Source: a virus (Duplodnaviria > Heunggongvirae > Uroviricota > Caudoviricetes). From it: a stretch of 40,323 nucleotides of DNA. Below the pieces are notes generated by a model that saw only the letters and a list, made by a program, of their open reading frames with translations, did no database searches and was not told the origin of the DNA. How positions within the stretch are numbered: position 1 is the first letter of the stretch; every line of letters begins with the position of its first letter. The DNA lies in IMG/VR virus record IMGVR_UViG_650377933_000001, positions 1 through 40,323 of that record; one strand, written 5' to 3'. Positions 1 through 40,323 of this stretch are shown here, piece by piece. The translations under genes and the position numbers were made by a program.

Positions 1-1074
1 TCATTTGTCGATTTCAATTTTGTCCCATTCACGCCCACGACTGTCCCTATACCGCGCCGCCATTGAATCTGATTTATGCCCGAGAAGACGTTGAGCAAAC
101 TTATCGCCAATCTGATTCCGGTATAGCCTCGCCGACAGGCTACGCAGTTCATGGAATGTTGGCGGGTCTCCATCAAATGAGAGTCCAGATACATTTCTCG
201 CCTTTGTAAAATACTTAGATACTGTTTTCGGGGAAAGCGGTTCGTGATGCGTTGATGCAATTATTGTTTCACTGCCGCTGGCCTCCCTGCATTTCTGTAG
301 TGTATCAGCCAATGAGATATTGAGCGCGTCAATCGTTAGCATCAGCGGAATGGCGAGCTTAGTACCTGTTTTACCCTGCTCAATGTGAAGATGGTTGTCG
401 TTTATGTCTGACCATTTCATTCTACATAAATCGCCTACTCTCTGCCCTGTAACGACAGCCAAATCCATTGCCAGCCTCAGCCAGATTGGGAGCGGTTCGG
501 CTGCATGGTAAATCGCGACATATTCATTAGCTGTCAGCCTTGAGCGCCTTACTTCTGACTTTGCTGTGCGGGTTGCTGTTACCGGATTCGTTTCCACATG
601 CCCCTCGGCTATTGCCTCACGAAAAACGTCAACAAGGGTTGACCTGATTAATTTTGCGGAAGCTGCTTTACCTTCTGCTACGTAGGTGTTTAGCATTGCT
701 GCCACTTCTTTCGTTGATATGTCAGTGAGCGGTTTGTCCGGCAATTTTCTTCGGATTACCCTGATTTTGCTGGCGTAGTCGAGTAGAGTTTTCGGTCTGA
801 TACCCCTCTCGCTGAGGATTGTTTCATATCGGTCAAGCCACGCATGAAGAGTGATTGCGTCAGCGCCTTTAATTCTGTCTATCAGTGACTCACGCCTGTT
901 CTCGGATAGCAACTCAATATTGGCCTGAATAGCCTCTGAAACTGCTATCCTTCTGTCTCTGCCTAATCCAAACTCTTTACCCGTCCTTGGGTCCCTGTAG
1001 CAGTAATATCCATTGTTTCTTATATAAAGGTTAGGGGGTAAATCCCGGCGCTCATGACTTCTCCTTCTTCCCAT
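1..1074 (-). CDS. int: Tyrosine integrase, lambda Int family
   Basis: 357-aa translation starting MGRRRSHERRDLPPNLYIRNNGYYCYRDPRTGKEFGLGRDRR, near-identical to my recollection of lambda Int, with C-terminal HELRSL...LLGH...Y catalytic motifs. Confidence 0.95.
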   Translation of the reverse strand: MGRRRSHERRDLPPNLYIRNNGYYCYRDPRTGKEFGLGRDRRIAVSEAIQANIELLSENRRESLIDRIKGADAITLHAWLDRYETILSERGIRPKTLLDYASKIRVIRRKLPDKPLTDISTKEVAAMLNTYVAEGKAASAKLIRSTLVDVFREAIAEGHVETNPVTATRTAKSEVRRSRLTANEYVAIYHAAEPLPIWLRLAMDLAVVTGQRVGDLCRMKWSDINDNHLHIEQGKTGTKLAIPLMLTIDALNISLADTLQKCREASGSETIIASTHHEPLSPKTVSKYFTKARNVSGLSFDGDPPTFHELRSLSARLYRNQIGDKFAQRLLGHKSDSMAARYRDSRGREWDKIEIDK

Positions 1075-34239: not shown

Positions 34240-34334
34240 TTAGTCGTCCACGGATGGATTGATCTTATCTCGTGCTTCACATTTGAATGGTTTGTCATTA
34301 GGATGTTTCCGGTTTTTTAGATATGGAAATTGAT

Positions 34335-34754
34335 ATGAAGAGGATTATTAGCGTCGTTGCTGGCGCTATCATGTTATCTGGGTGCGCAACTATTGTTGGT
34401 GATGAAACGCAACTTGTGCAAGTGAACAGCAACCCTTCCGGTGCGAGCTTTAAGGTAAAAGATGAATCAGGCGTGATTGTTGCGCAAGGCAAGACTCCAC
34501 AAGGAGTAACTCTTGCCAAGTCAGATGGTAGTTATTTTGGCAAAAAGAGCTACCAGATCACTATGGAAAAGGATGGGTACGAACCAGTTACCCTGCCAAT
34601 CAAAGCCAATGCTAATGGTTGGTATATTGGTGGAAACCTTGTGTTTGGTGGGTTAATTGGTTGGCTTGCTGTAGATCCTTTTAATGGTGGGATGTATACA
34701 TTGAAGCCAAAAGAGGCAAATGCATCTCTTATACCTTCTACGAAGCAAGATTAA
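34335..34754 (+). CDS. Putative lipoprotein (139 aa), lysogenic-conversion or exclusion candidate
   Basis: Signal peptide with lipobox MKRIISVVAGAIMLSGC; followed by a strong intrinsic terminator, so probably expressed as its own unit. Confidence 0.6.
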   Translation: MKRIISVVAGAIMLSGCATIVGDETQLVQVNSNPSGASFKVKDESGVIVAQGKTPQGVTLAKSDGSYFGKKSYQITMEKDGYEPVTLPIKANANGWYIGGNLVFGGLIGWLAVDPFNGGMYTLKPKEANASLIPSTKQD

Positions 34755-34798: not shown

Positions 34799-34984
34799 AT
34801 GACCATAGAAGAACGCCTGAACAACATTGAGTTGAACCAAACCCTGCTTGACCAGCGACTTTCAGATCTTGAGCTTAAAGATCTTGATGCGCAAATATCA
34901 GAAGCAGAAGCCAAGCTCTCCAGCTTAAACCACCGCAAGAAGCAAATCCGCAACAGAATTACTCAGGGACGCGGAAGCTGTTGA
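34799..34984 (+). CDS. Small hypothetical coiled-coil protein (61 aa)
   Basis: AAGGAG RBS 5 nt upstream of ATG; 3' end overlaps the convergent 34959-35168 ORF by 26 nt. Confidence 0.35.
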   Translation: MTIEERLNNIELNQTLLDQRLSDLELKDLDAQISEAEAKLSSLNHRKKQIRNRITQGRGSC

Positions 34985-35168
34985 GGTGGGATGCTAGGTC
35001 TCTATCGTTAAAATCAAGGCTGCTAATCATTTCATTGTAAATGGCGTTTTTATCTTCCATTGGCAGTCTTGAGTAAACCAGACACAGAGCATATTTCAGG
35101 GAGTTTAGCTCTTTCTCTAGCTCTTCCTTGCTTGACGTTGTTGACTTAATAAACTGTTTTTTATTCAT
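34959..35168 (-). CDS. Small hypothetical protein (69 aa) translationally coupled to mnt
   Basis: ATG overlaps the mnt stop (ATGA); no family recognised. Confidence 0.4.
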   Translation of the reverse strand: MNKKQFIKSTTSSKEELEKELNSLKYALCLVYSRLPMEDKNAIYNEMISSLDFNDRDLASHLNSFRVPE

Positions 35169-35416
35169 TTTGCATCCTTACCATACATGGTCTTTAGCGT
35201 CTCAACATCGTGTTCAAGATCTATCAATCGTGATGCTATAGTTGCAAGGTCTAGTGCTTGAATGTGTTTATTTTTTTCGGTCCACGCTTCAAGTGCCGCG
35301 ACCATCTCAGCATTTAATGAACGAGAATTAGCCTCAGCCAGTTCAATAAGACGTTCCTTTATCTCTACAGGAAGCCTCAGATTCACTTGAGGGTTTTTGT
35401 ACTTACGATCAGACAT
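35165..35416 (-). CDS. mnt: Mnt-like ribbon-helix-helix repressor (83 aa)
   Basis: N-terminal ...NPQVNLRLPVEIKERLIELAEANSRSLNAEMVAAL fits the Arc/MetJ/Mnt RHH pattern; same length as P22 Mnt; divergent from arc/ant as in P22 immI. Confidence 0.7.
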   Translation of the reverse strand: MSDRKYKNPQVNLRLPVEIKERLIELAEANSRSLNAEMVAALEAWTEKNKHIQALDLATIASRLIDLEHDVETLKTMYGKDAK

Positions 35417-35521: not shown

Positions 35522-35662
35522 ATGAAGGTAAAAACACTGCGTATGCCAGAGAAGCTAGAAAAAATTCTTGAAGAAAAAGCAAAGGAAGAGTGTCGCTCAT
35601 TCAGCGCAGAAGTAATTAAACGGGTGCTGGACAGCCTGAGGAGAGAGGGGATAACGGTGTGA
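35522..35662 (+). CDS. arc: Arc-like ribbon-helix-helix repressor (46 aa)
   Basis: Manual translation MKVKTLRMPEKLEKILEEKAKEECRSFSAEVIKRVLDSLRREGITV; GGAGGA RBS; beta-strand then two helices typical of RHH; precedes ant. Confidence 0.55.
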   Translation: MKVKTLRMPEKLEKILEEKAKEECRSFSAEVIKRVLDSLRREGITV

Positions 35663-35760: not shown

Positions 35761-36684
35761 ATGACGAGTGTAGCAATTGCAGAACATACAATCAACGTTC
35801 CATTCCACGGAACAAATCTCTTTTTGGTCAGCATTAACAATGAACCTTACGTTCCTATGAAACCCGTTGTAGAAGGCATGGGTATGGTTTGGGCTGCTCA
35901 ATTTGTTAAATTAAAACAGAGATTTGTCAAAGGTATTTCGGAAATCGAAATACCTTCTGCTGGCGGTAAACAGTTAATGATATGCCTTGCCTTTCGTAAG
36001 TTTGCGGCTTGGCTTTCAAGCATTCAGCCTAACAAAGTCCGCCCTGAAATCCGCGACAAGGTAATCCGGTATCAGGAAGAGTGTGACGATGTGCTCTACG
36101 AGTACTGGACTAAAGGTCATGTAGTTAACCCACGCAAAGCTAAAAAGGCGTTGCCGGGTAAAATCACCACTGAACAGCAGGAAGCCATTAAACAACTCGT
36201 CATGAGTCGCGGTCAGTCTCTGCCAAAGGAAAAACAGGCTAAGGCGATGATCACCATGTGGTCGTCACTGAAATCCCATTTTGGATGTTCATACAAAGAA
36301 ATCAGTGAGGAGCAGTTTACCGAAGCACTGTCACTTGCAGCTCGAGTTCCGCTTGAAGGTGAGTTCATTGGCAAACAAGAGAAGAAAACCAACGAGCTTT
36401 CTGCAAAAGAAGCAAACAGCCTTGTATGGTTATGGGATTATGCCAACCGCTCACAGGCATTATTCCGCGAACTGTATCCGGCATTAAAACAAATTCAATC
36501 GAACTATTCCGGCAGATGCTACGACTACGGTCATGAATTCTCGTATGTTATCGGAATGGCGAGAGACGTTTTAATCAATCACACACGAGATGTTGATATC
36601 AATGAGCCAGACGGACCAACGAATCTTTCCGCATGGATGAGACTTAAGAATAAAGAATTACCTCCTTCAGTACATAACTACTGA
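35761..36684 (+). CDS. ant: Antirepressor Ant (307 aa)
   Basis: Large ORF downstream of arc in the P22 immI arrangement; followed by an intrinsic terminator. Call rests mainly on synteny and size. Confidence 0.7.
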
Positions 36685-36702
36685 CAGATAACCAACGCAA
36701 CG

Positions 36703-36727
36703 ACCCAGCTTCGGCTGGGTTTTTTTA
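36703..36727 (+). terminator. Rho-independent terminator after ant
   Basis: ACCCAGC-TTCG-GCTGGGT followed by TTTTTTTT. Confidence 0.6.
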
Positions 36728-36794
36728 TGCTCAAAATTCACCGTAGCCATGCTGCGGCGATTCCTTGTATCTGGAGCAAATTAAATGACAGACA

Positions 36795-37304
36795 TTACCT
36801 ACCATGATTCTCATGATAACCATAGGTCTTTTCAGCCTCACGCCTTACAGCAATTGCATCATCGAGACTCTTAAAGTATCCGAGATTAATGCGCTTCCCT
36901 GCGTCGCTAATATATGCCACCCACTTTTTATGGGTCTTATGCCATGAAACCCCAGCGCACCCAGATGTATTGTTTGTGTATTTAGATTTGTTTTTTAGGT
37001 TTTCACCGAGACTAACTAGACGCAGGTTGTCTATTGAATTATTTAACCCGTTACCATCTTTATGGTCAATTTGCATTCCGGAAGGGATTTCACCATAAAA
37101 CATTTCCCATATTATCCTATGGGCGGCGTATATTTTATCTTGATACCTAATAATTATATAAGAGGTTTTCCTGTTCTTGTCCTTGAATATATGTCCTGCA
37201 GGCTTTTCTTTAGAGATATTAAACATTTTGGGTCTTGAAAGATATTGGTCACTCCAGTACAGGAGTCCATCGTCTTTTAATACGAATACTTCGTTCCAGT
37301 TCAT
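36795..37304 (-). CDS. HNH homing endonuclease with C-terminal AP2-like DNA-binding domain (169 aa)
   Basis: Start at MNWNEVFVLK with AAAGGTGG RBS; HNH motif ...QIDHKDGNGLNNSIDNLRLV...; C-terminal ...SGCAGVSWHKTHKKWVAYI...GYF...AIAVRREAEKTYGY resembles AP2 domains. The longer track ORF runs antisense into the tailspike start. Confidence 0.75.
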   Translation of the reverse strand: MNWNEVFVLKDDGLLYWSDQYLSRPKMFNISKEKPAGHIFKDKNRKTSYIIIRYQDKIYAAHRIIWEMFYGEIPSGMQIDHKDGNGLNNSIDNLRLVSLGENLKNKSKYTNNTSGCAGVSWHKTHKKWVAYISDAGKRINLGYFKSLDDAIAVRREAEKTYGYHENHGR

Positions 37305-37392
37305 GTTAACCACCTTTAAATAAAGTGCACTCATTATACAAAAAAACATGCTAGCAATGAATATTGCTGGCTTAACATATAGAGAAATTAAA

Positions 37393-39795
37393 ATGACAGA
37401 TTCAATAAATGCCAATGTTGTAGTGAGTATGCCTTCGCAACTCTTCACTATGGCGCGTTCTTTTAAAGCGGTTGCCAATGGCAAAATTTATATCGGTAAA
37501 ATTGACACTGACCCGGTAAATCCAGAAAACCAGATTCAGGTTTATGTAGAGAATGAAGATGGCTCTCACGTTCCTGTTGCACAGCCAATCATCATTAACG
37601 CTGGCGGGTATCCGGTATATAACGGACAGATTGCCAAATTCGTAACTGTACAGGGCCATTCTATGGCTGTTTATGATGCGTATGGTGCGCAGCAGTTCTA
37701 TTTTCCTAATGTGCTGAAGTATGACCCTGATCAGTTACGGCAGCAATTAGAAGACCCGGATGGTTCTAAAAAATATCCAGAATTGCAGATTGCACGATGG
37801 CGTGATGACAAAGACGTTCGCGGTTGGGGGGCTATCAGTGATGGAATAACTGACGCTACTGAGGCATTCTCTAACGCAGGCTATAGAATGTTTGTTCCTG
37901 ATGGCGATTTTGCAGTAAATACTCTCGAAGTTGATGTATCTTCTGCTCGAGGTATTGGGAGGATTGTTGCAGATAATGGCTCTCTTATTTCAGTTTCTCG
38001 TCTGCTTGAAACTGACAAACTTGCGCAGAGAAAAATGATGGAACCTTTTTTTGGTTTTCAGGGAGAAACAAACACAGAAATTTACCCTAATGCCAGAAAT
38101 GCGTTACAGGGGATCGCATATTGCCGTGTTAATGGCATTGAAAAACTATTTGTCACACAACGGCCTGTTGGGCCGACCTGGTCAGATAAAGAAAGAGTTC
38201 GTATTGTTGAGTTTAATCTTTATGATGATGGAAGGGTAGTAAACCATGTTGCGTATTCTCCAGAATTAAACCTTGGGCACGGTTTTGATCTTTCTGCCAT
38301 GGTGGAGAATGGTCAAGTATATTTATATACATCAAGTGTAACCAATTCAGGTGAAGATGGGGAGTCTGCAGGCAAAGGGTTTAGTAAAATAACTTGGCGA
38401 GGGGCAGGAACAACTCAGTCTGACGTAAAAAGTTATAATGTATGGGGGATTACTGGTAGCGGTCACCCATTTCAAGATTACAATCGTGCAGGAATTGCCA
38501 TTTCTTCTGACGGTCGTCTTTTAATAATGGTTAATACACCAAAGAGTGATGCCGCTAAACGAACTGTATTTATATACGATAAAATATCAATTGATAAACT
38601 TGAAGATAAAACATTAGCAAACCCCATGTTTGTTTGGGAAATGAGCGACTCACCTTCTGAAGGCGCTTACTCTGTACAAGGTATTGCGTCTGATGGAAGA
38701 TATATACATATACTTAAGGGAGGGGCTAACGCTTTTGGAAAGCATCATATCTTTACATATGATTTAACAGGTAATTTACTAAGAAAATTAGATATCGATG
38801 ATGCAAGGTCGCAATATGGGCGCGATGGGTTGCTTAACCATCCAACTCTTGGGAATCCAGCCAGATTTGAGCCGGAAGGTCTAACTATTCGTGGTGAAGA
38901 AATAATTATAAGCTGCATAGAAACATGGAGGGCAGGAGCTAATATTGTAAACTGGCGTGGAAGAAGATGGGCTGCATCATCCATTGAGACTTCTGGAATA
39001 ATTGGTGTCCCTCCATCAAATGGCTCTTATTGGGTAGAAACAACCAAGGATGCAAATTCTGGAGATTGGAGTCCTGAAATAGATTATGGATGGGGAAGTA
39101 GCTATTCTCTTGAGAAAAAGACAATTTACTCTATACGACCAGCGACTGGTAACAACGATGATCAGAACCTTAATTCTGGCATAACCAATGCTTCAAGTAA
39201 TGCAGGTGTAGATGCCGGAGAAAGCGGGCGAAATATATCATTTAGATGGCGCAATGCTTTTAATATTGTTGCATTTAGCGAACGTCTTGGTGAATACTTC
39301 AACGCTATTATGTATGATAATAGCTCAAGACTAAGAATATACGATCAGCAAAACGGTAGTGATAACACTGTTTATGGCTCAATCCAGGCACTATTTACGT
39401 CATCATTTAAGGGATTGATTTTAAGGGGTAGGGGGGTATCAGCATCAAATAGTTCCTATATTAGGTTACATTCATCTGATGATCCAAACTACCCAAATTC
39501 GATCATTGAAGGAACAAGAACAGATGGAAGTTTTTCCAGGGAAACAGATTCAAACGGAACCACTACATTCGCATCGGACTCAGAGCACGAACCGTTGCGT
39601 ATCAGAAGGGCTTCAGATGGTTTGTTGTTTGCATACGAGAAAGTAAGAGGTACAACTCTCTTTGGAATTTATAGAGGCTCCGGTTCACCTGAGGGTGTTG
39701 TGACCGCACCTCAGGGGTCAATGTATATTGATTATAATGGTGATTGGTATCAAAAGAAAACAGGAACAGGAAACACAGGATGGGTGTTAAAATAG
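37393..39795 (+). CDS. Tailspike protein: P22 gp9-like N-terminal head-binding domain fused to a divergent receptor-binding domain (800 aa)
   Basis: From [60 protein letters not shown]... the first ~115 aa match recalled P22 gp9; the remainder does not resemble the P22 endorhamnosidase as I recall it. Confidence 0.8.
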
Positions 39796-39824
39796 ACTAT
39801 TCTATTTTAATTGTTATCACTAAA

Positions 39825-39850
39825 CCACCTCCATTGGAGGTGGTATTTTA
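39825..39850 (+). terminator. Rho-independent terminator after the tailspike gene
   Basis: CCACCTCC-ATTG-GAGGTGG followed by TATTTTATT. Confidence 0.55.
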
Positions 39851-40035: not shown

Positions 40036-40323
40036 ATGGATATAACAGCTTTTCTTCACGCACTTTGCGCTGTTGTCGCACAGGCTCTGGTTGGTCTTTT
40101 TACCGGAAACTGGGCTTACGGTGCGATAGCAGGTTGTACGTTCTTCATTGCGCGTGAACACACCCAGGCAGAATATCGCTGGATAGAAAAGTTTGGGAAA
40201 GGGAAACGTATCAACATGCCATGGTGTGGAGGTTTTGATCCACGCGTGTGGGATGTGGGAAGTCTGTTGGATTTTTCTTTCCCAATTATCGGATGCTTAT
40301 TGGTATGGATTCTTGCATCGTAG
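40036..40323 (+). CDS. Hypothetical small membrane protein (95 aa), moron-like gene at the prophage end
   Basis: AAGGAG RBS 5 nt upstream of ATG; two to three hydrophobic segments; preceded by ~185 bp of very AT-rich DNA; stop codon is the last triplet of the window. Confidence 0.4.
   Translation: MDITAFLHALCAVVAQALVGLFTGNWAYGAIAGCTFFIAREHTQAEYRWIEKFGKGKRINMPWCGGFDPRVWDVGSLLDFSFPIIGCLLVWILAS

Follow-up and report, generated by a model that had tools for sequence, protein, structure and literature searches.

The tailspikes P22 gp9, Sf6 gp14 and HK620 gp9 are trimers attached to the phage tail, and their receptor parts are right-handed β-helices that act as O-antigen endoglycosidases. The P22-like phage CUS-3 has a spike that targets a group 2 capsule (K1) through a propeller domain, namely a six-bladed sialidase propeller followed by a Peptidase_S74 domain. 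Propellers of another kind, the five-bladed 'platform' type, occur in receptor-binding proteins (RBPs) that phages with Gram-positive hosts carry, such as Staphylococcus phage phi11 Gp45 (5efv) and the corresponding proteins of 80alpha, P68 (gp17) and NF5. These RBPs have an α-helical coiled-coil stem, and the Gp45 type carries a C-terminal 'tower' of two similar β-subdomains. Here, we analyze the tailspike gene (37393..39795, plus strand; 800 codons plus stop) of the virus record IMGVR_UViG_650377933_000001, whose 40,323 nucleotides are termed the window. The window is a complete P22-like (Lederbergvirus) temperate Escherichia coli prophage with early, lysis and structural genes, an immI region, the tailspike gene and a small open reading frame (ORF).

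The tailspike sequence is already catalogued, and chimeric tailspikes are ordinary among P22-like phages. Over its full length, the protein is 99.6% identical to the tailspike of phage Gally (CAH1189517), a prophage of the adherent-invasive E. coli (AIEC) strain LF82; against the vB_EcoP-683R2 tailspike, identity is 98.5%. Its receptor part shares 100% DNA identity with LF82, the 90%-identity cluster to which it belongs has 262 members, and it is assigned to PHROG 16355, 'unknown function'. Characterization of both close relatives stops at the 'tail spike' label; the Gally protein, induced in macrophages, is named only 'a tail spike' (PMC9928086). Literature searches on propeller-type tailspikes, whether of P22-like phages or of E. 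coli phages, and on gp66/G7C propellers found no prior description. What is new here is a predicted propeller fold, a relationship across the Gram divide, an association with a capsule locus, and invariant blade residues common to Gp45. Based on these observations we propose, with a probability of roughly 0.6, that the receptor of this tailspike is a K24-type group 2 capsule and not O antigen.

Results

A first-pass annotation of the window, made from sequence alone, had described the tailspike as a P22-type head-binding domain of ca. 115 residues fused to a divergent receptor-binding domain. The chimera is real: a conserved N-terminal part is followed, from ca. aa 150–160, by an unrelated receptor module. 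The head-binding domain (aa 1–114; 37393..37734, plus strand), which docks the trimer on the tail hub, matches PF09008 (Head_binding) at aa 4–114 with an E-value of 3.8e-65 and 217.7 bits against a cut-off of 24, and its PDB matches are 7sg7, 2vky and 1lkt. Solved Sf6 and P22 tailspikes align with residues 1–120 only, the P22 chains 2xc1_A and 8tvr_A giving a single aligned stretch (residues 2–118), so that the remainder is indeed unlike P22 gp9. Identity to P22 gp9, Sf6 gp14 and HK620 gp9 amounts to 60–92% over the ca. 115–125 residues of the PF09008 domain, with nothing alike past residue ~120; for the tailspikes of Sf101, N7, HK620 and HZ41 it reaches 87–94% over aa 1–119/125. The CUS-3 and vB_EcoP-720R6 tailspikes are 89% identical over aa 1–160 and thus across the linker or neck (aa 115–149; 37735..37839, plus strand), a predicted helical segment (helices at 112–119 and 129–138 in the model) common to CUS-3 and other E. 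coli P22-like tailspikes.

In sequence, the receptor part resembles none of the receptor domains of P22, Sf6 and HK620, and its family profile gave no true match against PDB sequences. An ordinary P22-type endorhamnosidase, the one finding that the annotation had named as refuting it, is excluded because the P22 chains match residues 2–118 only and the profile of the remainder is without a PDB match; the alignment ends by residue ~120. The Gly/Ser/Asn-rich segments and the C-terminus quoted for the protein are present in the ORF, the richest stretch being aa 587–616 (53% G+S+N). The receptor part is AT-rich as described: its GC content is 0.409 (0.279 at third codon positions), that of the window is 0.472, and it falls among the lowest 3.7% of 2-kb windows.

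Structure prediction and fold comparison, the check that had been suggested for the receptor part, point to a five-bladed propeller and no β-helix. Two AlphaFold2 models were obtained: model 1 covers aa 120–800 (14 sequences; predicted local distance difference test score, pLDDT, 77.9), and model 2 is full length (57 sequences; pLDDT 83.6, exceeding 90 over aa 140–600). Both describe an all-β protein of four-stranded repeats. Fold searches were run with model 1. The best Foldseek matches in the PDB are the RBPs of NF5, 80alpha, phi11 and P68 (E-values of 1e-9 to 1e-11), and the best match among viral models is the neck appendage of Bacillus phage GA-1 (E 1e-40, template modeling score 0.60). 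The model contains the five-bladed β-propeller platform of PF21311-type RBPs; the right-handed parallel β-helix seen in P22 gp9 (residues ~125–666) is not found, the best folds being propellers. As modeled, the receptor module is a Gp45-type platform propeller with additional β-domains.

All parts of the module are encoded on the plus strand. It starts with a small α/β cap (aa 150–235; 37840..38097) with a pectate-lyase-like N-terminal motif, modeled at pLDDT >90; PF12708 matches this region in 7 of 57 relatives. The predicted propeller (aa 236–514; 38098..38934) contains residues Q239, R270, H296, K328, H358, Q429, E493 and E495. It is followed by a CBM5/12-like hairpin (aa 515–566; 38935..39090), for which weak PF02839 matches occur in 7/57 relatives and in which W547, Y565 and P541 are at least 90% conserved, and by a predicted all-β sandwich (aa 567–735; 39091..39597; pLDDT ~90 in model 2) with conserved K576 and D651, which is possibly equivalent to the tower of Gp45-type proteins. 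The protein ends in a C-terminal module of ca. 65 residues (aa 736–800; 39598..39792) that belongs to no Pfam family and that, in tailspike relatives, alternates with the Peptidase_S74 chaperone domain. The latter is present in 21/57 relatives, and a Pfam scan found none in the window tailspike. The C-terminal module (GSPEG..GS.Y..Y.K..G.GNTGW) also occurs in 2–5 tandem copies in large fiber-like proteins (P0125, P0154, P0155, P0158, P0159 and P0161), one of which, 3821 aa long, additionally carries C1q/BclA_C and S74 domains; a Pfam scan of the proteins bearing it returned no family for the module.

At the sequence level, the link to the Gp45 family is weak but consistent. Similarity between the staphylococcal RBPs and the window tailspike lies under family thresholds. 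Weak PF21311 (Phage_RBD_prop) matches are found in 13/57 relatives (best E 2.5e-5), and Gp45 scores 16.8 bits against a hidden Markov model of the receptor family, where 500 shuffled sequences reached at most 9.7 bits, with GHG and QGI motifs in register. The Gp45 sequence F-Q-E-A-E-G-L corresponds to F-E-P-E-G-L in the tailspike.

Conserved polar residues recur once per blade. Q239, H296, E493 and E495 are invariant in the 57 relatives and 97–100% conserved in a 119-sequence alignment; R270, K328 and Q429 are at least 90% conserved among the 57, and H358 is nearly invariant, as seen in alignments of 14–16 sequences only. The set of one group per blade (Q239, H296, Q429 and E493-x-E495) occurs in Gp45 too. 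In the model, the conserved residues lie on, or immediately ahead of, the innermost strand in blades 1–5, with a spacing of 57–71 residues that equals one blade. In propellers, such innermost-strand positions ring the entrance of the central channel. Koc et al. located the presumed N-acetylglucosamine (GlcNAc) cavity of Gp45 at this same entrance (PMC4901313). The predicted pocket of invariant Gln, His and Glu residues (Q239, H296, H358, Q429, E493 and E495) is probably a glycan site, the clustering of Q239, H296, Q429, E493 and E495 being topological, since it is taken from blade topology.

The family is large and lacks annotation: an exhaustive search for relatives returned 738 cluster representatives with E ≤1e-3, of which 112 have E ≤1e-30; a second, word-index homologue search with alignment added nothing new. 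Family members have many kinds of virion anchor, among them T7 tail-fiber N-termini, P22 head-binding domains and tail-collar domains, and the receptor module of the window tailspike is found on T7-type tail-fiber N-termini, on a Gamaleyavirus gp66-type fiber and on a Uetakevirus-like anchor. GA-1 gp12, the neck appendage, shares 26% sequence identity over aa 208–660, and the gp66-type fiber of Gamaleyavirus PGN829.1 (AXY82583) 46% over aa 106–800. Both carry a homologous receptor module on different virion anchors, and many relatives end in the Peptidase_S74 chaperone, unlike the window tailspike.

To find the hosts of the module, we surveyed 5426 complete E. coli genomes and typed the O antigen of carriers by annotated wzx/wzy genes. 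Receptor-module DNA is present in 43 of them at 98.4–100% identity. Carriers comprise six O83 genomes (LF82 twice, A0 34/86 and three others), at least 18 O102 genomes (107 O102 genomes overall) and an O2/O50 strain, 15.TR.026_OXA. The specificity was expected to differ from that of P22, and this is upheld, since the fold differs and the hosts are E. coli O83, O102 and O2/O50 lysogens.

The conventional expectation would be an O-antigen-specific tailspike, comparable to those of P22, Sf6 and HK620 apart from its unusual fold: the gene is in the canonical tailspike position, LF82 and five other carriers are O83, and, to our knowledge, the characterized tailspikes of P22-like phages that do not target capsules are all directed against O antigen. 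Against this stands the module itself, which is at least 99% identical at the amino acid level across prophages of O83, O102 and O2/O50 strains (6–7 conservative residue changes among the compared copies from the window, Gally/LF82 (O83) and strain 222 (O102)) and is absent from 28 of the 34 O83 genomes. The same serogroup inconsistency was reported for the related PGN829.1 RBP1 type, which is carried by prophages in strains of serogroups O11, O83, O86 and O102 and whose target is probably a different one (Pas et al. 2023, PMC10408124). A single O serogroup as receptor was thus rejected, and we consider O-antigen specificity very improbable. As a separate observation on these hosts, the O83 wzy gene of LF82 (NC_011993 2126197–2127431; L004 46197–47431) is annotated as frameshifted. 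The frameshift looks real, because both LF82 assemblies have 2674 nt from wzx to wzy against 2675 in other O83 genomes, and LF82 may make an unpolymerized O antigen.

The core of the lipopolysaccharide (LPS) also varies among carriers. That of LF82 is R1-like, with a GT2 WaaV-like gene beside waaL, and that of strain 222 is R4-like, with a GT25 WaaX-like gene, by which the R4 outer core was rejected as receptor. Since carriers span three O serogroups and both R1-like and R4-like cores, neither O antigen nor one core type tracks the module.

The capsule locus does. The serotype-specific region 2 of the LF82 kps locus, a group 2 capsule locus, has genes for a TagD-like cytidylyltransferase, a TagF-like CDP-glycerol glycerophosphotransferase, a GT29-like (CMP-sugar type) transferase and a tetratricopeptide repeat protein. 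This LF82-type region is present in 67/5426 genomes, and at least 39 of the 43 module carriers hold it, where an overlap of 0.5 would be expected (hypergeometric P 4e-76, with genomes treated as independent despite clonality). Carriage is thereby largely confined to one K type (at least 39/43) across three O serogroups. Within O83, the module is found in 6/6 genomes with the locus and in 0/28 without it (Fisher P 7e-7). A0 34/86, the Colinfant strain, which is O83:K24:H31 (PMC10508162, PMC9140140), has this locus at 99.7% identity, and K24 contains α-Kdo (3-deoxy-D-manno-oct-2-ulosonic acid; PMC12887879). Because the gene content of the locus implies a polymer of Kdo and glycerol phosphate, we infer that the K24-type capsule would be teichoic-acid-like.

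The association extends to a second phage backbone. In A0 34/86, EC21 and EC19, the module is fused from ca. aa 150 to a Uetakevirus-like anchor, and all three hosts (3/3) are positive for the K24-type locus. The A0 34/86 copy is an 858-aa 'phage head protein' (NZ_CP120567 1693245–1695821; L021 5380–7956) with 98.5% DNA identity, the match starting at query nt 91, corresponding to aa ~150. It is followed by holins and a GH19 endolysin in a Uetakevirus-like layout, as in EC21 and EC19. A second propeller lineage (P0015), with a head-binding domain, a propeller and an S74 end, is 36% identical. It was found in five complete genomes, and exactly these five have a different kps region 2 (≥80% coverage) that is again of TagD/TagF type and would specify a glycerol-phosphate capsule.

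The capsule locus itself encodes a propeller homologue. LF82 kps region 2 contains WP_015912552 (NC_011993 3120899–3121882; L015 899–1882), a protein of 327 aa with a signal peptide, annotated as 'phage baseplate protein'. It is a five-bladed PF21311 propeller (E 4e-15) and matches the tailspike family profile with an hhalign probability of 96.4% (E 1.4e-9), with VQG, GHQG, LQA and WEPEGL motifs in register at ca. 25% identity; BLASTP of Gp45 against it gave nothing significant. Unlike the tailspike, it is stand-alone and chromosomal, lying within a capsule biosynthesis locus.

These patterns bear on a further alternative, that the receptor is a structure common to the carriers, namely LPS outer core, enterobacterial common antigen or an outer-membrane protein, and that the capsule association is a clonal by-product. 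R1 and R4 cores do share a galactose-galactose-glucose-glucose (Gal-Gal-Glc-Glc) main chain, and a few lineages dominate the carriers. An association of the R4 core with O102 and O86 is on record, and both R1 and R4 occur in O83 (PMC13293308). Yet R1 is the commonest E. coli core while the module occurs in 0.8% of genomes, and a clonal by-product accounts poorly for an association that persists within O83 (six of six against none of 28) and on two different phage backbones, that recurs in a second propeller lineage with another capsule locus, and that involves a locus with its own propeller gene. We therefore regard a shared surface structure as unlikely and retain the K24-type capsule as the favored receptor.

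Whether the propeller would only bind this capsule or also cleave it is a distinct question. It could be a capsule depolymerase of a new class (e.g., a phosphodiesterase or Kdo-glycosidase) with E493/E495 and histidines as catalytic residues, a reading that is compatible with the capsule as receptor. The invariant acid pair and histidines are retained even though the hosts differ in their glycans, many glycosidases have such a fold, a capsule biosynthesis locus encodes a secreted homologue, and the other known P22-like tailspikes are all enzymes. On the other hand, for phi11 Gp45, which has the same residues, and for P68 gp17, the only activity described is binding of GlcNAc-decorated wall teichoic acid. 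Sequence comparison with Pfam and the PDB matched the receptor part to no hydrolase family: neither GH43/GH62/GH32 membership nor their Asp/Asp/Glu pattern was seen in the window tailspike, and a Pfam scan for endosialidase (GH58) features found no PF12217, PF12219 or S74 match. An enzymatic propeller is a fair possibility, though we lean slightly towards binding alone; given the capsule as receptor, its cleavage approaches, at best, an even chance.

Several points weigh against the proposed capsule specificity and its structural basis. The evidence on the receptor is correlative throughout, and a prophage records past infection rather than present susceptibility. Genomes are not independent, as ST405-like O102 isolates dominate the carriers, and the five P0015 genomes may be a single clone. 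Four carriers are absent from the K24-type genomes listed. One of these four, the O102 carrier WCHEC4533, has a different, ribitol-phosphate-like kps region 2 (NZ_CP028589 813971–819422; L016 28971–34422) encoding a TagF-like enzyme and a bifunctional IspD/SDR enzyme that resembles CDP-ribitol synthase, together with a gene that, by annotation only, is a 'phage baseplate protein' (L016 33463–34422). The gene content suggests a ribitol-phosphate capsule and a capsule switch in the ST405-like lineage, and switching after lysogeny would explain this exception. The glycerol-phosphate content of K24 is our assumption, taken from gene content rather than from a structure paper. As for the fold, the window tailspike scores 15.6 bits against PF21311, under the gathering cut-off of 23.7, and hhalign of the receptor family with phi11 Gp45 alone gave a probability of 0.9%, which is not significant and was not used by itself as evidence of homology. 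Both models are monomeric, so that trimer geometry and pocket accessibility lie beyond them and the pocket is argued from blade topology.

The tailspike gene follows the ejection-protein genes and the immI region (mnt, 35165–35416; arc, 35522–35662; ant, 35761–36684), as in P22-like genomes. The window opens with the integrase gene (1–1074, minus strand), and the structural genes 5' of the tailspike are 93–97% identical to those of E. coli P22-like phages. An alternative in-frame ATG lies at 37348, 15 codons upstream; the start at 37393 is preferred, because homologues and the P22 gp9 start agree with it. Between the ejection-protein genes and mnt, two proteins of unknown function are encoded: a 143-aa protein (34323–34754; PHROG 6823) with a faint N-terminal likeness to Cor-type superinfection exclusion lipoproteins, and a 69-aa protein (34959–35168; PHROG 16466).

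The receptor domain had been said to border an HNH gene. This was wrong, as the gene abuts the 5' (head-binding) end of the tailspike gene. A conserved 'boundary' sequence that precedes P22-like tailspike genes (36685..36798, plus strand), including the ant terminator hairpin (36702–36721), is 97–99% identical to the tailspike upstream and start regions of CUS-3 (annotated bsq1), epsilon34, N7, HZ41 and Emek. Its last 14 nt, ATGACAGACATTAC (MTDIT) at 36785–36798, are what remains of the canonical tailspike start and overlap the HNH stop codon. The free-standing HNH endonuclease (169 aa; 36795..37304, minus strand) matches HNH_3 (E 1.5e-20) and AP2 (E 5e-5), is assigned to PHROG 99, and has best phage protein matches below 50% identity. 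Its cassette sits after codon 4 of the ancestral tailspike gene and extends to ca. 37392, and the first six codons of the window tailspike (MTDSIN) are rewritten relative to Gally (MTDIT). From its sequence, it looks like a free-standing homing endonuclease inserted in the first tailspike codons, with which a substitute 5' end arrived. In phage Kapi1, this site is occupied by another HNH gene, and an HNH insertion at the tailspike start was found in 0/5426 complete E. coli genomes. In Gally, the tailspike follows mnt as in the window, but the ant and HNH genes are lacking between the two and the canonical MTDIT start is kept. The HNH gene was also considered as the cause of the chimera and rejected; it is unrelated to the origin of the chimera, because Gally, O102 and Uetakevirus-like prophages have the same receptor module and no HNH gene. 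The earlier annotation is thus supported in outline; it did not foresee the propeller fold, the K-locus correlate and the HNH position.

Downstream of the receptor part, a spacer with a GC content of 0.25 holds a terminator-like hairpin (39824..39844, plus strand; 9-bp stem followed by a T run) 29 nt past the tailspike stop. It is followed by an ORF for a 95-aa predicted membrane protein in 'moron' position (40036..40323, plus strand; PHROG 1443, E 1.4e-52, unknown function), also present in Gally (GALLYPH_17). This ORF occupies the position of P22-like lysogenic-conversion genes, and the window terminates exactly at its stop codon. Genes 3' of propeller tailspikes vary: where the window and Gally have the 95-aa membrane protein, an O102 prophage (strain 222, L007 6166–7554) has a GDSL esterase and a DUF1796 protein, and a P0015-type prophage (L017 4367–5077) a hexapeptide-repeat acetyltransferase reminiscent of neuO beside the CUS-3 tailspike. 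These post-tailspike genes may be capsule-modifying conversion genes. Strain 222 (NZ_CP020516; L005, L006, L010 and L011) also shows a large inversion relative to K-12 gene order, in which dnaA through waa and tat to wec run in descending K-12 order and trp to rfb in ascending order; this is either a true rearrangement or an assembly issue.

Discussion

Among P22-like phages, CUS-3 offers the closest parallel. The two share 89% identity through the head-binding domain and linker, as far as aa 160, as well as the conserved upstream boundary sequence, and the CUS-3 spike is directed at a group 2 capsule through a propeller. The propellers differ: that of CUS-3 is a six-bladed sialidase with a Peptidase_S74 domain behind it, whereas the window tailspike has neither and is modeled as five-bladed and Gp45-like. 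Compared to the Gp45 type, the tailspike has a P22 head-binding domain and a short helical neck in place of the coiled-coil stem, and C-terminal β-domains where Gp45 has its tower. We envision that the head-binding domain trimer docks the spike on the tail hub as in P22, a step shown by homology, and that three propellers per spike would each expose a central pocket. This pocket would bind the capsule polymer, by which the phage would adsorb to K24-type capsule and possibly cut through it, much as CUS-3 does with the K1 capsule.

A broader idea combines two claims: that the Gp45-type propeller is a dedicated module for polyol-phosphate (teichoic-acid-like) glycopolymers in RBPs of Gram-positive phages, in tailspikes of E. 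coli phages directed at glycerol-phosphate capsules (the K24 type and a second one) and in capsule loci alike, and that the window tailspike is the first capsule depolymerase of a new class, perhaps a His/Glu phosphodiesterase. We hold this conjunction to be speculative and rather unlikely. If true, the depolymerase part predicts an overlooked enzymatic activity in the staphylococcal proteins.

If the K24-type capsule is the receptor, the window tailspike would be the second type of P22-like tailspike with capsule specificity, the K1 endosialidase of CUS-3 being the first, and K-capsule specificity would explain the serogroup 'inconsistencies' of Pas et al. 2023 for this RBP type. The target capsule would be that of Crohn's-associated LF82, of the probiotic Colinfant strain and of many ST405-like O102 isolates with multidrug resistance. 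The protein would then be a candidate reagent for typing or for decapsulation, and it would determine host range in therapy phages. It would also give a ligand class to the PHROG 16355 family, with its 738 cluster representatives, and to the propeller gene in E. coli capsule loci. Finally, capsule recognition in Gram-negative bacteria would be linked to the teichoic-acid-binding proteins of Staphylococcus and Bacillus phages, with polyol-phosphate polymers as the chemical rationale.

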